A DNA stretch of 64,000 nt, taken from the NCBI GenBank assembly GCA_027006175.1, contig JALTKS010000038.1, positions 24,080 through 88,079 on the forward strand. Direction: 5' to 3'. The notes beneath the pieces were generated by a model. It was given only the letters and a program-made list of their open reading frames with translations. It had not been told where the DNA came from and did not search any database. The stretch comes from Gammaproteobacteria bacterium (GTDB lineage: Bacteria > Pseudomonadota > Gammaproteobacteria > AKS1). The translations under genes were made by a program, and so were the position numbers. Position 1 is the stretch's first letter, and every line of letters begins with the position of its first letter. Below are positions 51,625 to 63,272 of the stretch, piece after piece.

Positions 51625-52224
51625 TTAATCTCGATGTAAATGAAGTCGCTCATGCAAGGGGCTGCTACGAGGAAAATGCGCCAAAAGAAATTCCATTTGA
51701 TCTGCCAATACACGCTTACTCTGTAAATAGACATACTCCGCATGAGTGGGTATAAAAGGCACTGCTAGCAAGGCTATACCTGCCTGTTCTGGTGTTCTAC
51801 CTGCTTTATGGTTATTACAACGTTTACATGCAGTTACTACATTGTTCCAGCTATCCGCACCTGATTGGCTCAACGGGGTAACATGATCACGCGATAAATC
51901 CCGATCCAGAAAATGCGAACCGCAATACATACACAAATGTGCATCACGCTTAAAAAGTGCTTTATTATTTAATGGCGGGCTATAGTACTTTCTTGCTTTT
52001 GATGCAGCACAACTGCCGTGTGTTGCAACAATAGAATTAACATTAATAACGCTACGTTGACCGCTATGCGCATTAACGCCACCGCGCACTCGATAGAGTA
52101 AAGAGCCACAACTATAAGCAACCTGCTCTAAATGATATAAGCGAACCGCATCCTGATAATTAATCCATTCCAGTGGCATACCCGCAGCATCTGTTCTTAG
52201 TATCTGTTGAGTAAAACCAGTCAC
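51625..52224 (-). CDS. HNH endonuclease-domain protein
   Basis: 199 aa with a GTG start 6 nt after AAGGAG. The HNH/Zn motif is CMYCGSHF...DHVTPLSQSGADSWNNVVTACKRCNNHK. The stop lies 8 nt before the fructosamine kinase start. Confidence 0.85.
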   Translation of the reverse strand: MTGFTQQILRTDAAGMPLEWINYQDAVRLYHLEQVAYSCGSLLYRVRGGVNAHSGQRSVINVNSIVATHGSCAASKARKYYSPPLNNKALFKRDAHLCMYCGSHFLDRDLSRDHVTPLSQSGADSWNNVVTACKRCNNHKAGRTPEQAGIALLAVPFIPTHAEYVYLQSKRVLADQMEFLLAHFPRSSPLHERLHLHRD

Positions 52225-52293
52225 ATCTAACTCCTTCTTTCATGCGTAAGGCTAAGCTACCCTGATTATATTCATATAATCAAGCAAGCGGCC

Positions 52294-52324
52294 AAAAAAA
52301 ACGGGGTACCAAAGTGGTACCCCG
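52294..52324 (-). terminator. Orphan intrinsic terminator with no annotated upstream ORF on its strand
   Basis: The minus-strand RNA reads CGGGGUACC-ACUUU-GGUACCCCG followed by U8. The stem is 52302-52310 / 52316-52324 and the run on the plus strand is A8 at 52294-52301. It lies about 70 nt upstream of the HNH start, and no ORF of 60 aa or more lies upstream on the minus strand before 52600. Confidence 0.7.
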
Positions 52325-52599
52325 AAAACATCTCTAAGGAGGAGAAACTACAATTTGCAGACACTACGTCCATTCACCATTTGGCTTACTAAACAATGAT
52401 GCAATGCCCATGCCAAGCTGAAATAACCGATTATCAATCACTTAGCATCAATGATAAACCTTGTTTTCGTCATTTTATTGACCAATTACGTCAGTGATAT
52501 GACGCACTGGGGCCATGCTTATGTTTATTTACTTGAAGAGTCTGCTATAACCTCTATGCTTTACTAGATATTTTAGTATCAAGTCCTGGACGACACGGC

Positions 52600-53727
52600 A
52601 TGCCCGATGACACCGAAGTAGAGAATGAAGAAATAGCCCACTTACTGGTGGTGGATGACTCACGTCTGATGCGCCGCGCTATCGGTAAAATTCTTGGTAA
52701 AGAATACCGCATTACCGAAGCGGCTGATGGAGAAGAAGCATGGAGTACGCTTCAAGAAATTGATGATATTCGAGTTATTTTTTCCGACCTTTCCATGCCT
52801 AATTTAGACGGTTTTGGTTTACTTGATCGTATACGCCAAAGTGATGATCCTGCTATCAATGAATTACCCGTGATCATTATTACTGGCGCGGAGGATGATG
52901 ACGAAACCAAACACAAAGCACTGCAAAATGGTGCCTCTGATTTTATTAGCAAACCTTTTGAATCAGTACAATTACGAACCCGTGCTAAAACACACGTTCA
53001 ACTCAATCAAACTCATAAGAAACTAACTGAAACCACATCTGAGCTTGAAAAGCAGGCAACAACCGATAGGCTAACAGGACTTAGTAATAAAAAATATTTT
53101 GATAGCCGTATTGTTAAAGATCTCTCTTATGCAAAACGACATCGCGGCGAACTGACCTTGGTACTATTAGAAATTAATGAATTCCATCGATTATTCCTGA
53201 AACGGGGTAAAGAAGTCGCTGATGACATTCTGAAACGTGTTGCCAATATCAGTTGTGCGGAAACCCGTAACGAGGATACGCTGGCACGTATTGGTTTAGC
53301 TAAACTTGCTTTTATTTTACCTTCTGCAAACAGGGTTGGTGCCAAGAAACTCGCGGATCGCGTTTCTGAACAACTCAATGAATTAGACGTTAATTTTAAT
53401 ATCGGTATTGCAGCGACAGACATTAACAATACAACATCTACCGATGACATTATCAACCTGGCGGAAGATCACTTACAGACTGCCATTAGCCAGCCAGGCA
53501 ACAGTATTGTTATAGATGAAATAGTAACCAAGTTAACGCCTTTAAATAGCCTGCCAGATATCGATACAGCAATACGATTATCCGGCAGCGCTGAAGCTGA
53601 ACGTTTACAACCTTATCTCGCGGTATTATTAAATAAGCTACTGCCTTTACTCAAACTATGCAATAAAAAGCTTGGTTTAGATATTGACGATGCCATTTCT
53701 AAAATTGAAAAACGGCTGAAAAAATAA
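52600..53727 (+). CDS. Response-regulator receiver fused to a degenerate GGDEF domain (A-site GLAKL, I-site RNED retained)
   Basis: 375 aa with an intact REC domain (LLVVDDS, IFSDLSMP, IIITG, SKPF). The GGDEF fold shows DRLTGLSNKKYF, LLEINEF in place of LLDIDHF, and RNEDTLARIGLAKLAFILP aligned to RxxDxxxRxGG(D/E)EFxxxLP. Confidence 0.85.
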   Translation: MPDDTEVENEEIAHLLVVDDSRLMRRAIGKILGKEYRITEAADGEEAWSTLQEIDDIRVIFSDLSMPNLDGFGLLDRIRQSDDPAINELPVIIITGAEDDDETKHKALQNGASDFISKPFESVQLRTRAKTHVQLNQTHKKLTETTSELEKQATTDRLTGLSNKKYFDSRIVKDLSYAKRHRGELTLVLLEINEFHRLFLKRGKEVADDILKRVANISCAETRNEDTLARIGLAKLAFILPSANRVGAKKLADRVSEQLNELDVNFNIGIAATDINNTTSTDDIINLAEDHLQTAISQPGNSIVIDEIVTKLTPLNSLPDIDTAIRLSGSAEAERLQPYLAVLLNKLLPLLKLCNKKLGLDIDDAISKIEKRLKK

Positions 53728-53735
53728 CCATTATA

Positions 53736-55412
53736 TTACTTACCGCGCTGTATTTCTGAATATTGCAAGGCCAATCTGGCCTGGTTTACAAATTGAATAA
53801 AACCTTTTTGCAATTCATCATTTACCTGTATTCCAGACGTGCCCATGTCAGCATAAAAAAGTCCGACAATTCTATCTCCCGCCCTTAGCGCTGCAATTGA
53901 AAAAGAACTTACCTTAACTTGTGAAACAAACTCTTTTGGCACCAGGTTTTTCCAATCCGGTGAATTTACATCATTCACCAATAACTCATTACCTTCGCGT
54001 AGAATTTTAATAAATAAATTTCTGTTATCTCTTACCTGTAAATCAAAATATTTTTTCAGATTATCCTGATTCTCACCTACACCTAATCGTACTTGTAATC
54101 TGGAATGGTCTGCATTCAACAAACACAATACTGCTCGATTAAAGTGCAATCCTTTATGAATCCCTTCCAGAACTTTTGCAAACACATGATGCACACCGGC
54201 AGACGAGCTAATTAAACCTGTTATATCCTGCAATATAGAAAGCTGGACCTGTAAATCAGCGCTTTTAATCAGCTTTTGCTTTGGTTTTTTTATAACCGAT
54301 TTAGCAGCAGCAATCTTTTTTGATACAGAACTGTCTTTTTTATTCTTTGCTGCGCTATCTGGTTTTTTATCTTTATTCAGTTGTTCTTCATCAAGATGTT
54401 CATCATCTGTAGTAGATCGCGTTCCTGCATAAAACGATAACTGTCTGGACATCTTGTTCAATAATGCATCGCTGGTTTCATGCACTGGTGGCATTAATAG
54501 CTTCATGTCAATACCGTAATCACTGGCCAGGTCGCAGCTATTACGAAAATTTTGTTGCATGCACTCTTCAATATCACTACGACTAATACCGACAGCATTG
54601 GCCATATCCTGATAAATTTCACCTAAACTGCTTTCTTGTCTGTTTTGTTTCCCAAAAAGCACTTCCAAACTTGAATTTGATAAGGATGATAATGCTTTAT
54701 TTATTTCGATAGGGTCCGTTAAGTTTTTGCTTGAGTTAGAACGATAATTTTGCATTGTTTTTATAACGTTATTTGAAAACCCCCACTGCTCACCCAACTT
54801 TTGGCCAACGGTGTAAAATGATAAACCTAATTGCTGCTGTTGCACCTTACTCCAACTTATATGGTTTTTTTCATCCATCAACAACATCTGCTTATACTTT
54901 TCAGGTAAGGCATAAGCAACAATAATTTCACCCAAACCATGCAGTAATCCACAGATATAACTTTGTTCAATATCTTTAACCCCTGCTTTTTCTGCAACTT
55001 CGCGTGCCATGCCTGCATTCAAGAATGCATTAACCAACATGCTATTCATATCAAAGCCATCATCACCGGTATTGAAACTTTCAATTAACTTCAACGTTAA
55101 GCAAAGACTTCTTATTGTTTCAAAACCCAGCAATATCACTGCACGAGAAATGATTGTAATCTTGCCTAAGCCTCGGTTATAAACACTTGAGTTCGCTAAC
55201 TGTAATAACTTCGTTGTGAGATTAGCGTCCTTCATCACCTCCACTGCCAATGACATAGCATCACTATCGCTATCACTGCTGATATGGCGTACTTTATTTA
55301 AAGTCGCACTAAAGATCGGTAAATCACCCAAATGAGATAATCGTTGTTCAATTTTTTTCAGTGTTTCAGCACCGTCAACTTCAGCTGTCTTGTGTTTCTT
55401 TTTCGCTGTCAT
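53736..55412 (-). CDS. HDOD domain - Lys-rich linker - GAF domain protein
   Basis: 558 aa with an N-terminal HDOD (LGDLPIFSATLNKV...DANLTTKLLQLANSSVY...ISRAVILLGFETIRSL). A basic low-complexity linker follows, then a C-terminal GAF-like domain (ILQDITGLISSS...NRAVLCLLNADHSRLQVRLGVG...IVGLFYAD). Confidence 0.8.
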   Translation of the reverse strand: MTAKKKHKTAEVDGAETLKKIEQRLSHLGDLPIFSATLNKVRHISSDSDSDAMSLAVEVMKDANLTTKLLQLANSSVYNRGLGKITIISRAVILLGFETIRSLCLTLKLIESFNTGDDGFDMNSMLVNAFLNAGMAREVAEKAGVKDIEQSYICGLLHGLGEIIVAYALPEKYKQMLLMDEKNHISWSKVQQQQLGLSFYTVGQKLGEQWGFSNNVIKTMQNYRSNSSKNLTDPIEINKALSSLSNSSLEVLFGKQNRQESSLGEIYQDMANAVGISRSDIEECMQQNFRNSCDLASDYGIDMKLLMPPVHETSDALLNKMSRQLSFYAGTRSTTDDEHLDEEQLNKDKKPDSAAKNKKDSSVSKKIAAAKSVIKKPKQKLIKSADLQVQLSILQDITGLISSSAGVHHVFAKVLEGIHKGLHFNRAVLCLLNADHSRLQVRLGVGENQDNLKKYFDLQVRDNRNLFIKILREGNELLVNDVNSPDWKNLVPKEFVSQVKVSSFSIAALRAGDRIVGLFYADMGTSGIQVNDELQKGFIQFVNQARLALQYSEIQRGK

Positions 55413-55513
55413 TCAATCTATCCACATAAGTGTGTTATATAGAGTATCCTTATGCGGTTTGTTATCGACACTCAGGGTCAATTCATTAGCGACAAAGGGT
55501 TTGACGGAAGAAT

Positions 55514-57403
55514 ATGCTTACTCATAGCAAACAAAAGTCATCTCAACGTATCTCAATAATGGCACTAACTGCCATTGTCATCGCTTTTATTGAGTTCTTT
55601 TTCGTTGATCTCATGCTTGGCATGGAGTCTCGACTCAGTGATCGCTTTGTGCTCTCTCAAGCCAGCAACCTCCGTACTGACCCGGATATCGTGATTATCG
55701 ATATTGATGAGTACAGCCTCGATAGTATTGGCAGAAAAGAAGGTTATGGACGCTATCCCTGGCCACGTGAATTACACGGCAAATTGCTTCAGGAAATTAT
55801 CAAGCAAAAACCTAAGGCAATTATTTACGATATCTTGTTCTCTGATCAAGACAATCAAGCTAAACACAACGATGAAACAAAGACCGCCAGCGATGACGCT
55901 TTTGGCAAGGTCATTCAGCAAACAAATAATATTTATTTTCCCATTTTAAGACTACCCGCCGAAAATGATTCTGAAAGCCAGATTATTCTGGGTAAATTTG
56001 GTTCTGCTCTGGGGTTTACTGCAACCGAGAAGGCTGATCCGATGGCGCGTATTTCATTACAATTACCCGGCATTCCTGCCGCCATTGATACGGGGCGTTT
56101 GGGTAACGTGCAATATATTGAAGATCCCGATGGGGTGGGTCGCCGCTACTTACTTTATACCGAAGCCTATGGCTGGCGTATCCCCTCCTTGCCGGCACGA
56201 CTTGCACGCGATCTTAATTACCCTATTCCCGATCAAGAAAGTATTCGCTTGCATTGGCGAGGTAAAAAATCTTCTTTTCATCATATTTCTTTTTATGATC
56301 TCTATGATGATTTTTTTAATCATCAAAAACCCCAGCGTAGTGCCAACGAACTTGAGGACAAAATAATTATCATTGGCGCATCCGCACCCTCATTGGGTGA
56401 CCGTCGCACAACCCCACTGGACAGCCTTTATCCAGGTGTTGAAATGTTGGCAACTGCTATTTCAAATTTAAAAAATAATCGCTACATGCAGGAACCGGAT
56501 CCGGTTTTTCCAGCCATTATGTCTCTGGTTATTATCCTCAGCCTGCTTTACGCGGTGCTCCATATAAGAAACTCATTTCGTATCTTTATCGGCTATCTGG
56601 CATTTACGATTATCTCACTTGGCATTAGTTATTTTGCTGTTGCCTCACTCCTCATTATTCCTTTGCTACGACCTTTATTATTTGGCTGGCTGTTTTACAC
56701 CTTTGCAGCGCTTTATGACTATCTTGAAGAAAAACAAACTCGAGAACGTTCCATGCGAATGTTCAGCCGTTTTGTCGACCCACGTGTCGTCAGTGATTTA
56801 GTCAGTGAAGGTGAAGAAGGACTCAATAAATATTTTAATGCACAGAGAATCCAATGTACGGTTCTCTTTTCTGATATCCGCGGTTTTACCACCATGTCGC
56901 AACATCGTGAGCCAGAAGAAATTGTTTCGCTGTTAAACCAGTACTTTTCACGTCAAACCAATGTTATTTTCCAGCACGGCGGTACCATAGATAAATTTAT
57001 TGGTGATGCCATTATGGCATTCTGGGGTGCGCCAATTACTGATCCCAACCATGCTCAACATGCAGTTGAGGCGGCTCTCGATATGGTTGAAGCCTTAACA
57101 TTATTCAAACAATCACTGGGCGGCGAACTCGGTGAAAGCTTTGATATTGGCATTGGGATTCATAGTGGCGAAGCCGTGGTGGGCATGATTGGCTCTGAAA
57201 CAAAACTCGATTACACCTGTATTGGGGATACCGTTAATACTGCCAGTCGGCTTGAAGGGCAAACCAAAGGCAGAGCCAGAATTCTTGTTTCCGCGGCGAC
57301 AAAAGCACTTTGTAATGATAGTATTAACTTTAGAGACCATGGTGCAGTCTCAGTGAAAGGCCGCGATGAATCGGTAAAAATATTTGAACCGCAACGAAAA
57401 TAA
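55514..57403 (+). CDS. CHASE2 sensor - class III adenylate cyclase
   Basis: 629 aa with an N-terminal TM helix and a periplasmic CHASE2 domain (DIVIIDIDEYSL...YPWPRELHGKLLQEI...AIIYDILFSDQD). Three TM helices follow, then the cyclase domain (VLFSDIRGFTTMS...GGTIDKFIGDAIMAFWGAP...GIHSGEAVVGMIG...DYTCIGDTVNTASRLE). A Lys/Thr specificity pair suggests ATP as substrate. Confidence 0.88.
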   Translation: MLTHSKQKSSQRISIMALTAIVIAFIEFFFVDLMLGMESRLSDRFVLSQASNLRTDPDIVIIDIDEYSLDSIGRKEGYGRYPWPRELHGKLLQEIIKQKPKAIIYDILFSDQDNQAKHNDETKTASDDAFGKVIQQTNNIYFPILRLPAENDSESQIILGKFGSALGFTATEKADPMARISLQLPGIPAAIDTGRLGNVQYIEDPDGVGRRYLLYTEAYGWRIPSLPARLARDLNYPIPDQESIRLHWRGKKSSFHHISFYDLYDDFFNHQKPQRSANELEDKIIIIGASAPSLGDRRTTPLDSLYPGVEMLATAISNLKNNRYMQEPDPVFPAIMSLVIILSLLYAVLHIRNSFRIFIGYLAFTIISLGISYFAVASLLIIPLLRPLLFGWLFYTFAALYDYLEEKQTRERSMRMFSRFVDPRVVSDLVSEGEEGLNKYFNAQRIQCTVLFSDIRGFTTMSQHREPEEIVSLLNQYFSRQTNVIFQHGGTIDKFIGDAIMAFWGAPITDPNHAQHAVEAALDMVEALTLFKQSLGGELGESFDIGIGIHSGEAVVGMIGSETKLDYTCIGDTVNTASRLEGQTKGRARILVSAATKALCNDSINFRDHGAVSVKGRDESVKIFEPQRK

Positions 57404-57427
57404 TATTTCGCATCACAGGAGGTGGTT

Positions 57428-57988
57428 GTGAAACAACTATTCTACTTTGCCCTGATTCTTTTCATATCAAGTACTAACGCCCTTGCTGCGGATAAAATCG
57501 GTGTTATTTCACGCGATGCCAATCTCTACGCAAAACCTTTTAAAGATGCCGATACCATTGCAGAATTGCCTGCAACAACGCCTATTATCATTCTTAAACG
57601 CAAAGGTGGCTGGTACGAAATCAAAGCCGCGGAAAAACAGGGTTGGGTAAGGCTCACTCGTGTTCGCCTCAACCGACAATCTGGTGCAACAAAAGAATCC
57701 ACTAGTGGCGTTGGCGAGTTACTCTCCGGTCTTGCTACCGGTCGTGGAAAATCCAGCCAGGACACAACAGCCACCGCAGTAAAAGGACTTAGCGAAGAAG
57801 AATTGCGTAATGCCGAACCTGATCTCGATGCACTTAACGCGCTCGATAATTACGCGATCAACGATGATGCCGGTGATAACTCCGGCTTACAAACCCGACA
57901 AATTGATTACCAACCGGGCACCGCAGCCAAATCTGACGACACAGCAACACCAGCTAAAAAAACCAGTTATGAGGAGGATGAAGAATGA
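57428..57988 (+). CDS. Secreted SH3b-domain protein with acidic disordered tail
   Basis: It has a signal peptide (…ISSTNALA/AD) and an SH3_3-like core (ANLYAKPFKDADTIAELPATTPIIILKRKGGWYEIKAAEKQGWVRLTRVRL). I prefer the GTG at 57428, which is 5 nt after AGGAGG at 57417-57422. The ORF track starts at 57422. It begins 24 nt after the cyclase stop. Confidence 0.7.
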   Translation: MKQLFYFALILFISSTNALAADKIGVISRDANLYAKPFKDADTIAELPATTPIIILKRKGGWYEIKAAEKQGWVRLTRVRLNRQSGATKESTSGVGELLSGLATGRGKSSQDTTATAVKGLSEEELRNAEPDLDALNALDNYAINDDAGDNSGLQTRQIDYQPGTAAKSDDTATPAKKTSYEEDEE

Positions 57989-58884
57989 TTGCACCTCTGC
58001 AAACACTCTCACTTCCTGCCCTCCTGCTGATGCTTAGCTTTTCAGCGCATGCCTTTGACTTTGGCAGTGTTCTTGGTGGCGGCGATGACTCTGGCGGCGG
58101 CTCGAACGTCTTCGACATTGGTGAAATGATCAGTGGTGTAAAAGACATCTCCCGTACTATTACCGGCATTGACGAGGAAGATGAAATCGAAATCGGTCGT
58201 GATGCCGCAGCCGTACTACTCGGTGCCTCAAAACCTGTTAATGATCCTGAACTACAGCGCTATGTAAACCGAATTGGTCGCTGGGTCGTTAACCAAACCG
58301 ACCGCGCTCACTTGCCCTGGCGTTTTGCTGTACTTCGCTCAAATGCAGTCAATGCTTTCGCAACACCTGGTGGTAATATCTTCATTACCGATGGTCTTCT
58401 CGACCTGCTTACAAGTGAAGCCGAACTTGCCGCGGTGATTTCTCACGAAGTGGCGCATGTGATTCAAAAACACCATATCAAGGCCATGTCGAGTCTCAAC
58501 ACCAGTGGGCTGTCAGGTGTTATTAAACTCGCTAGCGCGACCAGAGAAGGTCGCAGTAATCAAATGACCACCCAGTTAGTCGGCGAAGTAAAAGACATGT
58601 ATCTACGCGGCCTCGATAAAGGTGATGAGTTTGAAGCAGATAGCATGGGAACAGTGATCGCGAGCAGAGCCGGTTATGACCCGTTTGCACTCATGGCGGT
58701 ACTACAAACACTTGATAGCATCGATCCCGAAAACTCAGGGCTTGCACTACTCTACAAAACCCACCCTCCCGCCTCCGATCGCCTCGACAAACTCGAACCG
58801 GTGCTCGAGCAATTTGACGAACCCGCCGAAGAGTCACCCATGCTGCAAAAACGCTTTAATAAATACGTTGGCAAGCACTCGTGA
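57985..58884 (+). CDS. Periplasmic M48-family Zn metallopeptidase
   Basis: 299 aa with a signal peptide (…LSFSAHA/FD), HEVAHVIQKH, and a downstream GDEFEAD glutamate. Its ATG overlaps the SH3b gene stop (ATGA). Confidence 0.88.
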   Translation: MIAPLQTLSLPALLLMLSFSAHAFDFGSVLGGGDDSGGGSNVFDIGEMISGVKDISRTITGIDEEDEIEIGRDAAAVLLGASKPVNDPELQRYVNRIGRWVVNQTDRAHLPWRFAVLRSNAVNAFATPGGNIFITDGLLDLLTSEAELAAVISHEVAHVIQKHHIKAMSSLNTSGLSGVIKLASATREGRSNQMTTQLVGEVKDMYLRGLDKGDEFEADSMGTVIASRAGYDPFALMAVLQTLDSIDPENSGLALLYKTHPPASDRLDKLEPVLEQFDEPAEESPMLQKRFNKYVGKHS

Positions 58885-61502: not shown

Positions 61503-63272
61503 ATGAAAGATGAACTGCAACAAATTATCCACACCGCACTGGCTGGGCTGACTAGTACCGGTGCCCTGAACTGTGACCTGCCTGACAATATCAATATTGA
61601 TCGTACCCGTGACAAGAGTCATGGCGATTTTGCCACCAATATTGCGCTGGTACTGTCCAAGCCAGCCGGCATGAAACCACGTGATTTAGCCGATGCCATT
61701 GTCAAAGCCTTACCCGCCAACCCGATGATTACCAAGGTTGAGATCGCCGGTCCCGGTTTTATTAACTTTACACTAGCCGATGACGCCCAAGCCTCGGTGG
61801 TCGCCAAGGTTCACGCGCAAGCAGCGCAATATGGCTGTGGTGATTTAGGCAAGGGTCAAAAAATTCAAATCGAGTTTGTTTCTGCCAACCCAACCGGTCC
61901 ACTGCATGTGGGTCATGGTCGTGGGGCGGCTTATGGTGCATCACTCGGTAATTTATTAAAAGCCGCCGGCTACGATGTGCATAACGAATACTACGTTAAT
62001 GATGCCGGTCGTCAGATGAATATTCTTGCCGCCAGTGTTTGGCTGCGTTATCTGGAACTTGGTGAACCGGATTTCCGTGATCATTTCCCTAAAAATGGTT
62101 ATCAAGGCGACTATGTGCAATGTATTGCGGCAGCACTGCGCAATAGCCACGCCACACGTTTCGATCACGACATTAAAACCGTGTTTGCTGATTTACCTGC
62201 AGATGAAGGCGAAGCAGGCGGCGACAAAGAAGCCCATATTGATGGCATTATTGAACGTGCCCGTGAATTACTCGGTGATGATGATTACCAGATTGTTTTT
62301 GATGCTGGTTTACATGACATCACTGATGGTATTCGTGTCGAACTGGAACATTTTGGTGTTCACTACGACAACTGGTATTCAGAACGGCAACTCCACGACA
62401 GCGGCAAAATTGATGAGTGCATCGCCCGCCTGAAAGACTCGGGGCATGTTTACGAAGACAAAGGTGCGCTGTGGTTTCGCTCAACCGACTACGGTGATGA
62501 AAAAGATCGTGTTGTGGTCCGTGACAACGGCATTAAAACCTACTTCGCCGCTGACATTGCCTATCACATGGAAAAACTGGAACGCGGTTTTGATCGCGTG
62601 ATTGATGTTTGGGGTGCTGATCATCACGGTTACGTACCACGGGTAAAAGCGGCACTCGCTGCAATTGGTTCGGATCCCTCAAAACTCGATGTCTTATTAG
62701 TTCAATTCGCTGTGCTTTATCAGGGCGGCGAAAAAATGCAAATGTCCACTCGTAGCGGGCAGTTTGTTACTTTACGCGAACTTCGTCAGGAAGTTGGTAA
62801 TGATGCCGCGCGTTTTTTTTACGTTATGCGTAAATGTGAACAGCACATGGATTTTGATTTGGATCTCGCCAAATCACAAAGTAACGATAACCCCGTTTAC
62901 TACATTCAATATGCGCATGCCCGTATTTGCAGTGTGCTACGTCAGCTTACGGAAAAAGAACTTGAATGGAATAAAGACAATGGGTTGGCAAATTTAGCCA
63001 TTCTCACTGAATCGCATGAAACCGATCTGATGACCTTGCTCGCAAAATACCCTGAACTGGTTGAAGCTGCTGCTCGTAACTATGAACCGCATCAAATTGC
63101 TTACTACCTGCGCGACTTAGCTACGGCTTTTCATACCTACTACAATGCGCATCAGTTTATCGTTGACGATACGGCTACCCGTGATGCCCGCTTTGCTTTG
63201 ATTACAGCGGTTCAACAGGTGATTAAAAATGGACTATCATTGCTTGGCGTTAACGCACCGGATACCATGTAA
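61503..63272 (+). CDS. argS: Arginine--tRNA ligase
   Basis: 589 aa with a class I HIGH region (SANPTGPLHVGHGRGA), the MSTRSG (KMSK-like) motif and a DALR anticodon-binding C-terminus. Confidence 0.97.
   Translation: MKDELQQIIHTALAGLTSTGALNCDLPDNINIDRTRDKSHGDFATNIALVLSKPAGMKPRDLADAIVKALPANPMITKVEIAGPGFINFTLADDAQASVVAKVHAQAAQYGCGDLGKGQKIQIEFVSANPTGPLHVGHGRGAAYGASLGNLLKAAGYDVHNEYYVNDAGRQMNILAASVWLRYLELGEPDFRDHFPKNGYQGDYVQCIAAALRNSHATRFDHDIKTVFADLPADEGEAGGDKEAHIDGIIERARELLGDDDYQIVFDAGLHDITDGIRVELEHFGVHYDNWYSERQLHDSGKIDECIARLKDSGHVYEDKGALWFRSTDYGDEKDRVVVRDNGIKTYFAADIAYHMEKLERGFDRVIDVWGADHHGYVPRVKAALAAIGSDPSKLDVLLVQFAVLYQGGEKMQMSTRSGQFVTLRELRQEVGNDAARFFYVMRKCEQHMDFDLDLAKSQSNDNPVYYIQYAHARICSVLRQLTEKELEWNKDNGLANLAILTESHETDLMTLLAKYPELVEAAARNYEPHQIAYYLRDLATAFHTYYNAHQFIVDDTATRDARFALITAVQQVIKNGLSLLGVNAPDTM

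Follow-up and report, generated by a model that had tools for sequence, protein, structure and literature searches.

Within a 64,000-nucleotide stretch of DNA from a gammaproteobacterium (contig JALTKS010000038.1 of assembly GCA_027006175.1; the whole stretch is referred to here as the window), five signalling genes lie together between hemE and priA and raise the question of whether they form a single system. An earlier note on this DNA, made without database searches, had taken them to be one. In that proposal a periplasmic cue would be relayed by a CHASE2 adenylate cyclase, through cyclic AMP (cAMP), to the GAF domain of an HDOD-GAF protein, with cross-talk to cyclic di-GMP (c-di-GMP) and a phosphorelay acting through a protein with a receiver (REC) and an inactive GGDEF domain. 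Comparison with related loci indicates instead that the stretch of some 6.6 kb is two independent modules which abut in this lineage, not one system. Module A (55514-58884) is an operon encoding the cyclase, a small secreted protein and a metalloprotease of the M48 family, whilst Module B (52287-55412) holds the REC-GGDEF and HDOD-GAF genes together with a small-RNA-like element. The best explanation overall, which we consider narrowly probable, combines this division with a mechanism in which Module A senses through proteolysis of a periplasmic partner. The five genes are as follows.

52600-53727, plus strand: protein with REC and GGDEF domains (Pfam)
53736-55412, minus strand: protein with an HDOD and a marginal GAF domain (Pfam)
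55514-57403, plus strand: CHASE2 class III adenylate cyclase (Pfam)
57422-57988, plus strand: small SH3b-like secreted protein (Pfam SH3_3)
57985-58884, plus strand: Peptidase_M48 protein (Pfam)

In its description of the parts the earlier note was accurate. All five open reading frames (ORFs) sit where it had placed them, within 6.6 kb; each of its domain calls is backed by Pfam, and Pfam finds no DNA-binding domain in any of the five proteins. Strand and spacing likewise bear out its division into three transcription units, namely the REC-GGDEF gene alone, the HDOD-GAF gene, and the operon of cyclase, small protein and M48 protease. The HDOD-GAF gene is convergent to that for REC-GGDEF, with an 8-bp gap, and divergent from the cyclase gene, with 101 bp between them. 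Within the operon, 18 nucleotides separate the cyclase gene from that of the small protein, and the latter overlaps the M48 gene by four (ATGA).

Linkage of the five genes was tested from three anchors, the cyclase, the small protein and the HDOD-GAF protein, and in close relatives of the window. The cyclase-anchored set was made up of the best 80 of at least 595 reference-genome loci, scored by tblastn with all five window proteins. The small-protein-anchored set was made up of the best 80 of 108 metagenome loci matching the peptide pattern GL[SD][EAK]E[DQ][LI][QK]N, and is mostly betaproteobacterial-like. The HDOD-GAF gene was found beside the cyclase operon in none of the 80 genome loci and none of the 78 metagenome loci scored, and for REC-GGDEF the genome loci gave only occasional generic REC or GGDEF matches, kilobases away. 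Elsewhere, about 115 loci carry the cyclase operon without the REC-GGDEF/HDOD-GAF pair.

The close relatives, designated like the other loci by L numbers where these are needed, tell the same story in finer steps. Those with cyclases 88% and 78% identical to that of the window have all five genes, and with them the entire hemE…priA-argS-SPOR backbone. At 64% (L087) the REC-GGDEF gene and the operon are present, with a PAS-GAF hybrid histidine kinase at the HDOD-GAF position. At 60% (a Sulfuriflexus metagenome-assembled genome, MAG) and 51% (Sideroxydans) only the three-gene operon is found, and in this Sulfuriflexus MAG it sits at another site, without the pair beside it. A second Sulfuriflexus MAG and the complete genome of S. 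mobilis have the succession Sel1, fructosamine kinase, (HNH), REC-GGDEF, HDOD-GAF, priA, argS and SPOR; in these two genomes nothing lies between the HDOD-GAF gene and priA, and there is no cyclase operon at that site. An HDOD-GAF homologue of 41% identity (L090) stands alone. The 120 best cyclase homologues, all of at least 48% identity, include no protein from S. mobilis, though the pair is present in that genome, an observation which is suggestive only.

A five-gene system is therefore not upheld, because its genes occur independently elsewhere, the outcome that the earlier note had itself named as refuting it. The proposed cascade can draw on the adjacency of the genes, on the divergent arrangement of the HDOD-GAF and cyclase genes, on the retention of the whole arrangement at 78% and 88% cyclase identity, and on the presence of REC-GGDEF by the operon at 64%. 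The conservation of all five, seen only in relatives at 77% cyclase identity or more, is weak evidence, however, because synteny of the entire hemE…priA backbone extends just as far, and the pair and the operon are each found without the other. The step from cAMP to a GAF-HDOD effector fares poorly on its own account: the GAF domain is marginal (23.2 bits against a cut-off of 22.4), and a pattern search for the NKFDE-type cyclic-nucleotide signature, as found in PDE2 and CyaB, gave no match in 120 HDOD-GAF orthologues. The GAF domain may bind some other ligand, and the five-gene cascade as a whole is very unlikely. What stands of it is the route from periplasm to cAMP, in that cyclase, SH3b protein and M48 protease form a unit strictly co-encoded across phyla.

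The conservation of this unit is extensive. Where the cyclase is at least 37% identical and downstream sequence is available, the order cyclase, small ORF, M48 is found in all of about 35 loci from Alpha-, Beta- and Gammaproteobacteria, among them Sulfuricella, Gallionella, Chitinimonas, Azonexus, Chitiniphilus, Undibacterium and Vibrio profundi. Also among these loci are Arenimonas, Castellaniella, Acidovorax, Pseudomonas, Nevskia, Permianibacter and Novosphingobium, and in some Acidobacteria, Deltaproteobacteria and Margulisbacteria an M48 gene directly follows a more distant CHASE2 cyclase. Approached from the small protein, in loci with enough sequence, the picture is equally strict: a cyclase lies directly upstream in 56 of 56, with CHASE2 in 45 of 45, and M48 directly downstream in 64 of 64. 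Of 89 loci, 57 have an overlap between the stop codon of the small-protein gene and the start codon of M48, and in 77 the two genes are between -8 and +15 nucleotides apart; to judge from this spacing they are translationally coupled. The association also survives rearrangement. In a Thiobacillus locus (L051, 8580-13003) the order is permuted, with small protein, M48, a divergent CHASE2 cyclase and a class-II phosphodiesterase-like gene, and at L034:746-3655 the small-protein/M48 pair is tandemly duplicated downstream of one cyclase. Judged by this conservation, the three-gene operon is a real functional unit.

The fourth gene of the Thiobacillus locus encodes a metallo-beta-lactamase-fold protein that matches class-II cAMP phosphodiesterases, and homologues neighbour the cyclase in two further loci (L050 and L060). 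Such phosphodiesterase-like neighbours would pair cAMP synthesis with its degradation.

Literature searches combining CHASE2 with M48, metalloprotease or SH3, and M48 with adenylate cyclase, yielded no description of the operon, within a literature coverage that is incomplete, and the combination of cyclase, tail-motif protein and M48 protease is apparently undescribed. The earlier suggestion of a previously undescribed system can accordingly be kept for the three genes of the operon, but not for the five-gene island, which is not a real system.

The cyclase itself has the features of a working membrane sensor. It matches CHASE2 with 173 bits (cut-off 26.3) and Guanylate_cyc with 111 bits (cut-off 21.9). 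Hydropathy, together with an AlphaFold2 (AF2) model whose predicted local distance difference test (pLDDT) values are above 90 over residues 10-410, predicts an N-terminal transmembrane helix at about residues 11-39, a periplasmic CHASE2 domain at about 40-327, three transmembrane helices within 328-398 and a cytoplasmic cyclase domain at 447-620. Neither a set of 14 orthologues nor one of 66 shows any variation in the metal-binding residues D454 and D498, the substrate pair K494/T568 and the transition-state residues N575 and R579; these are roles long assigned to the corresponding residues throughout the class III cyclase family. The K494/T568 pair is of the type seen in ATP-specific class IIIb enzymes, and the cyclase looks catalytically competent. 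Its best Foldseek matches are class III adenylate cyclases, namely CyaC, CyaB and photoactivated adenylate cyclases. No match to the CHASE2 fold was found when the full cyclase model was submitted to Foldseek, the 50 matches listed all being to the catalytic domain, and a sequence search of solved structures with the CHASE2 region gave no match. Directly upstream of five distant cyclases that have no M48 partner (L067, L068, L073, L074 and L081) lies a recurrent protein family, which has a FecR domain in the two members scanned (L068 and L073). Cyanobacterial metacaspase-CHASE2 fusions were considered as a parallel to the operon and set aside as irrelevant, the protease in those proteins being a cytoplasmic output domain.

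The M48 protein, of 299 residues, has a signal peptide and a protease domain of the BepA-like type (Pfam Peptidase_M48, 114 bits), with no match to tetratricopeptide repeats (TPR). Its metalloprotease motifs are HEVAH and EFEAD, and among operon-linked orthologues HExxH is found in 43 of 43 and ExxAD in 38 of 43, so that the protein looks catalytically competent and periplasmic. Among solved structures it comes closest to the stand-alone M48 protein 3c37 and to the protease domain of BepA. With BepA, LoiP, YcaL and 3c37 it shares the catalytic domain, the HExxH…ExxAD motifs and a periplasmic or lipoprotein location. Neither of two NCBIfam equivalog models reaches its cut-off, however (BepA, 110 bits against 570; LoiP, 45 against 365), and as the protein falls so far below the former and has no TPR it is not a BepA orthologue; nor is it an orthologue of LoiP. 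Unlike BepA and LoiP, it is dedicated to a cyclase operon. In eleven loci (L017, L021, L023-L026, L030, L031, L034, L054 and L061) the M48 protein has a lipobox cysteine and is a predicted lipoprotein. The anchoring of the protease thus differs between lineages, since the window protein and others have an ordinary signal peptide where many others have a lipobox.

The third member of the operon is the least familiar. It consists of a signal peptide, an SH3b-like domain at about residues 33-80 and a tail. The SH3b call is marginal (SH3_3, 29.0 against 27 bits; SH3_4, 25.5 against 24.1), and there are weak profile matches to the SH3b domains of solved cell-wall hydrolases. In family alignments the tail contains the motif T-A-T-A-V-K-G-L-S-E-E-E-L-x-N-A (residues 115-131) and a distal A..F/L…G.L element, and it is the universal form of this motif, T-x-G-x-[RK]-G-L … F..G.L, that holds the best-conserved residues of the family: G122 is invariant and T118 nearly so in the first part, and L156 is nearly invariant in the second. 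The tail is predicted to be disordered. A profile of the small protein matches 2,275 cluster representatives at E <= 1e-3 and 665 at E <= 1e-10, most of them 145-260 residues long and matching along the whole profile; given the 2,275 clusters, the three-gene unit is therefore common.

A comparison of the window with a near-identical contig (L001) over 57571-58197 shows 47.6 single-nucleotide polymorphisms per kb in the small-protein gene, mostly in the tail, against 0.5 per kb in the cyclase gene. They are also raised in the 5' part of the M48 gene, neighbouring genes have 0-3 per kb, and argS has a patch at 61775-62330. Diversifying selection on the small protein was considered and rejected, as most of the changes are synonymous, some 27 at the nucleotide level altering only about 7 amino acids, and as a comparable patch exists in argS; recombination confined to a patch, or an assembly that mixes strains, is the more likely source.

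Some Acidobacteria suggest what the tail may be for. In four acidobacterial loci (L037, L058, L063 and L083) the M48 gene directly follows the cyclase gene, and the protease has a C-terminal extension of about 100-120 residues. This extension ends …QTASAGARGVG…ITAAELDAFKKGIA, in which both elements of the tail motif follow one another as they do in the small protein. In a fifth acidobacterial locus (L056) the small protein is free, and has the tail but not SH3b. When a tail-only hidden Markov model (HMM) was run against shuffled sequences, the real score was reached by 1 of 500 shuffles for L058, 1 of 500 for L083 and 21 of 500 for L037. The two-part pattern has no opposite-strand matches (6,437 background ORF fragments) and matches the tails of L058 and L063 and the L056 protein. 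The tail motif is thus probably fused to the C-terminus of M48 in some Acidobacteria, and there is moderate evidence that the tail would be the universal partner of the protease and the SH3b domain an accessory part.

How, then, might the three proteins work together? In the mechanism favoured here, the input would be the periplasmic CHASE2 domain of the membrane adenylate cyclase. In the periplasm the M48 protease would recognise, and probably cleave, the tail of the small protein, and CHASE2 would read the state of the small protein/M48 pair, whether intact, cleaved or sequestered, and so gate cAMP synthesis in the cytoplasm. The sensor would then be governed, like others of the envelope, by controlled proteolysis of its periplasmic partner. 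In this specific form, for which we infer the binding and cleavage partners as well as the direction of the effect on the cyclase, the proposal is tentative, and we place it a little short of an even call. A bolder version is that M48 cuts the small protein at T-x-G-x-[RK]-G and frees a C-terminal peptide of about 60 residues which is itself the direct ligand of CHASE2, so that the operon would encode its own signal. This we think quite unlikely. If it were true, cAMP would report the activity or accessibility of a periplasmic protease, for example the state of the envelope or the presence of competing substrates; the M48-tail fusions of Acidobacteria would be forms of this device that process themselves, and for the first time a CHASE2 domain would have a defined ligand and a defined mechanism of activation.

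The same three proteins can be wired differently. The signal might come from outside the operon, with M48 producing from an external or envelope protein the peptide that CHASE2 really binds, and with the small protein serving as adaptor or anchor, for example by its SH3b domain on peptidoglycan and its tail docking M48. Three observations suit this arrangement: in Sinorhizobium meliloti the CHASE2 cyclases respond by way of an accessory envelope protein to a signal that is itself a protein (PMC13001267), SH3b domains are similar to those seen in cell-wall hydrolases, and the acidobacterial fusion of tail to M48 fits a docking role as well as that of a substrate. However, SH3b is dispensable in Acidobacteria, as the free L056 protein and the fusions show, and peptidoglycan anchoring therefore cannot be essential; nor is any candidate external substrate encoded nearby. 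An adaptor of this kind is unlikely, though it has some claim to attention. A site-1-type cut by M48 in CHASE2 itself, which would switch the cyclase irreversibly once a cue had made the small protein stop shielding the cleavage site, much as RseB shields RseA, is in our view decidedly unlikely. The co-location and strict co-encoding of the three extracytoplasmic parts would fit it, and analogous logic is established for envelope-stress sensors. However, neither a conserved exposed loop nor a cleavage site is evident in CHASE2, and the AF2 model of the periplasmic domain is compact and confident. If the tail shields CHASE2, it is also less clear why it should be fused to M48.

Two further explanations would take the protease or the neighbours out of cAMP signalling altogether, or put the cyclase to another use. 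The small protein and M48 might be house-keeping factors of the envelope, of the BepA/LoiP type, which share a transcript with the cyclase but play no part in its signalling; among characterised proteins, those nearest to the protease are indeed outer-membrane quality-control proteases, and many of the M48 orthologues, like LoiP, are predicted lipoproteins. Against this stands a co-occurrence (56/56 and 64/64) that extends across phyla and persists through a change of gene order and a duplication of the pair, far beyond what chance co-transcription would give, and in the loci sampled the small protein family was not seen outside the operon context. The house-keeping explanation is accordingly given only a slight chance. 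Nor is there any real prospect that the cyclase is a Pycsar-type anti-phage cyclase (PycC) with its neighbours as effectors. The PycC models of PADLOC do match the catalytic domain, with a best score of 114 bits, but the match spans only the generic class III fold, and the Lys/Thr pair is that of ATP-specific class IIIb enzymes. Among the neighbours, none has either a domain for cyclic-nucleotide binding or a match in PADLOC, and the extracellular CHASE2 input and a chromosomal context of conserved synteny are unlike those of a defence island.

Sensing through a proteolysed partner, the reading preferred here, would have well-known relatives. In the CpxP/DegP/CpxA, ExoR/ExoS-ChvI and RseB/RseA/DegS systems a membrane sensor is modulated by a small protein of the periplasm, whose level is set in turn by a periplasmic protease, and this is the logic proposed for Module A. 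In those systems, however, a general or stress protease is encoded elsewhere and the output is a kinase or sigma factor, whereas here the protease is dedicated and coupled and the output is a cyclase. No homology of the small protein to partners of the CpxP, ExoR or RseB type was detected. Nearer in architecture are the S. meliloti cyclases CyaD1, CyaD2 and CyaK, CHASE2 proteins that need the outer-membrane protein NsrA and whose signal is a protein, plant uL2 (PMC13001267). Like the cyclase of the window they are membrane class III enzymes with a periplasmic CHASE2 input and cAMP as output, and their activation depends on a separate envelope protein; NsrA, however, is an outer-membrane beta-barrel and no proteolytic step is described there, in place of which Module A has the SH3b/tail protein and M48. 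The ‘BiofilmReg’ operon of Burkholderia encodes a response regulator, a LysM-FecR protein, a CHASE2 histidine kinase and a DUF4136 protein (PMC5192318). It too combines a CHASE2 sensor with a dedicated, co-encoded secreted partner that has a domain of a cell-wall-binding type, LysM there and SH3b here, but its output is a histidine kinase and it has no protease, and none of the operon proteins of the window has a FecR match. Control of CHASE2 sensors by an accessory protein is thus known already; what is apparently new is the tail-motif protein and M48 as the partners.

Several points weigh against this account, both in its division into two modules and in the mechanism given to the first. Adjacency of REC-GGDEF to the operon persists over a family-level clade, from 64 to 100% cyclase identity, and with the HDOD-GAF gene divergent across only 101 bp there may be lineage-specific co-regulation of Module B with the operon. 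Both sets of loci are biased, as they are best-scoring subsets and one of them was drawn with a single peptide pattern. The fusion statistics are mixed, L063 not being significant by the tail-only HMM though it matches the two-part pattern. That the tail is disordered is a weak inference, because the AF2 model of the small protein is poor, with a pLDDT of only 43, which is too low to bear out the SH3b fold either. Lastly, many distant CHASE2 cyclases, at 33% identity or less, have no M48 and have FecR-domain or other neighbours instead, from which it follows that M48 is not a general requirement of CHASE2. Different CHASE2 clades appear to use different periplasmic partners.

If the operon is a unit of its own, what is the remainder? 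Module B is most readily seen as a separate, lineage-restricted set of receivers of the c-di-GMP type. In an alignment of five orthologues of the REC-GGDEF protein, residues D19, D20, D63, T95 and K118 are invariant, as in an intact phospho-acceptor receiver. The GGDEF motif is degenerate, reading RIGLAKL in the window and RIG(L/V)(A/S)(K/Q)L in all five, and the signature of an active diguanylate cyclase, GG(D/E)EF, is found in none of them. All five nevertheless keep an RxxD I-site, R(N/H)ED (RNED in the window), which lies five residues upstream of where the active site used to be. These observations agree with the earlier description of an inactive GGDEF domain with an I-site. A conserved C-terminal helical extension is also present in all five, and the protein looks like a phosphorylation-controlled c-di-GMP receptor or adaptor. 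At L087:4298-7441 a PAS-GAF hybrid histidine kinase of 1,047 residues is encoded directly upstream of REC-GGDEF on the same strand, and is a candidate cognate kinase for this orphan receiver.

The HDOD-GAF protein matches HDOD, a domain related to HD-GYP but without catalytic activity, with 139 bits. At E <= 1e-5 it has 182 homologues, which match over the full length to identities as low as about 36%. Loss of the active site with retention of RxxD, as in REC-GGDEF, is familiar from degenerate-GGDEF I-site receptors of the PopA and PelD type, and one HDOD protein, SadB, binds c-di-GMP (PMC6543031). The combination of REC, degenerate GGDEF and a C-terminal helical extension, and that of HDOD with GAF, are however architectures other than those of PopA, PelD and SadB. 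The mutual link between the REC-GGDEF and HDOD-GAF proteins is itself modest, as their convergent adjacency is confined to the Sulfuriflexus-related clade.

At the left edge of Module B, upstream of REC-GGDEF, lie three non-coding features.

52287..52480, minus strand: conserved non-coding element (terminator scan, four-genome alignment)
52489-52504: inverted repeat CGTCA-N6-TGACG (read from the sequence; half-sites largely conserved in four genomes)
52533-52560, plus strand: putative sigma-70 promoter of REC-GGDEF, with -35 TTGAAG at 52533-52538 and -10 TATGCT at 52555-52560 (spacer 16)

The earlier note had placed a palindromic operator and a candidate small RNA (sRNA) at this edge. The terminator scan identifies the hairpin in question as a minus-strand intrinsic terminator, with its stem at 52324..52302 followed by T8, so that the operator falls away. 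Compensatory changes are seen in the terminator stem, and the whole intergenic region has a mean identity of 70% in the alignment of four genomes, whose proteins are 50-78% identical. Just upstream of the terminator on the minus strand is an anti-Shine-Dalgarno-like motif, CUCCUCCUU (the complement of 52336-52344). In this the element is like the alphaproteobacterial sRNAs mmgR/suhB (RF00519), in which a C/U-rich anti-Shine-Dalgarno motif stands just upstream of an intrinsic terminator. A permissive Rfam search with RF00519 gave only a sub-threshold match, however (25.5 bits against a gathering score of 41, E = 0.003); the match is confined to the 3' part, and the host belongs to the Gammaproteobacteria. 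The element is a candidate for either a trans-acting sRNA or the 5' leader of the minus-strand HNH/fructosamine-kinase genes. The sRNA remains plausible, but it would lie on the minus strand and accompany REC-GGDEF, not the cyclase. The element is found only in loci that carry REC-GGDEF, and is kept where the HNH gene is missing (L088); it travels with REC-GGDEF and does not belong to the cyclase unit. All four genomes conserve the promoter block, and the CGTCA-N6-TGACG repeat, about 30 bp upstream of the putative promoter, could be a regulator binding site. A small plus-strand ORF following a strong AAGGAGG at 52336 was also considered, and was dropped since the alignment shows that it is not conserved in S. 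mobilis.

The surroundings of the two modules are as the earlier note had described them. The left flank comprises hemE, a REC-GerE regulator, two Sel1 proteins, a fructosamine kinase and a small HNH protein, and the right flank priA-argS-SPOR, with pilM-pilQ further upstream. The nearest named relatives belong to Sulfuriflexus (Gammaproteobacteria), and the window matches the metagenome scaffold ENA ERZ23495147. The HNH gene (51625-52224, minus strand; 199 residues) encodes a stand-alone endonuclease with weak likeness in its HNH domain to IscB/Cas9 and PtuB models. It is a presence/absence polymorphism, being found in the window, in L086 and in S. mobilis, while L087 and L088 lack it at that point of the backbone.

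Signalling genes that lie packed together may be neighbours by accident, and the five-gene ‘cascade’ of this locus dissolves on comparison with related genomes. What the comparison leaves is a unit that bears on a wider question. Cyclases, kinases and c-di-GMP enzymes alike can bear CHASE2, an extracellular sensor domain of wide distribution, and what it senses has not been known since its description (PMC5192318). The only cyclase examples of CHASE2 that have been studied answer a protein signal by way of an accessory envelope protein (PMC13001267). The operon of cyclase, tail-motif protein and M48 protease, conserved across hundreds of family clusters in environmental Proteobacteria and beyond, would offer a testable idea, embodied in three genes, of how a CHASE2 domain may be switched by the proteolysis of its partner.

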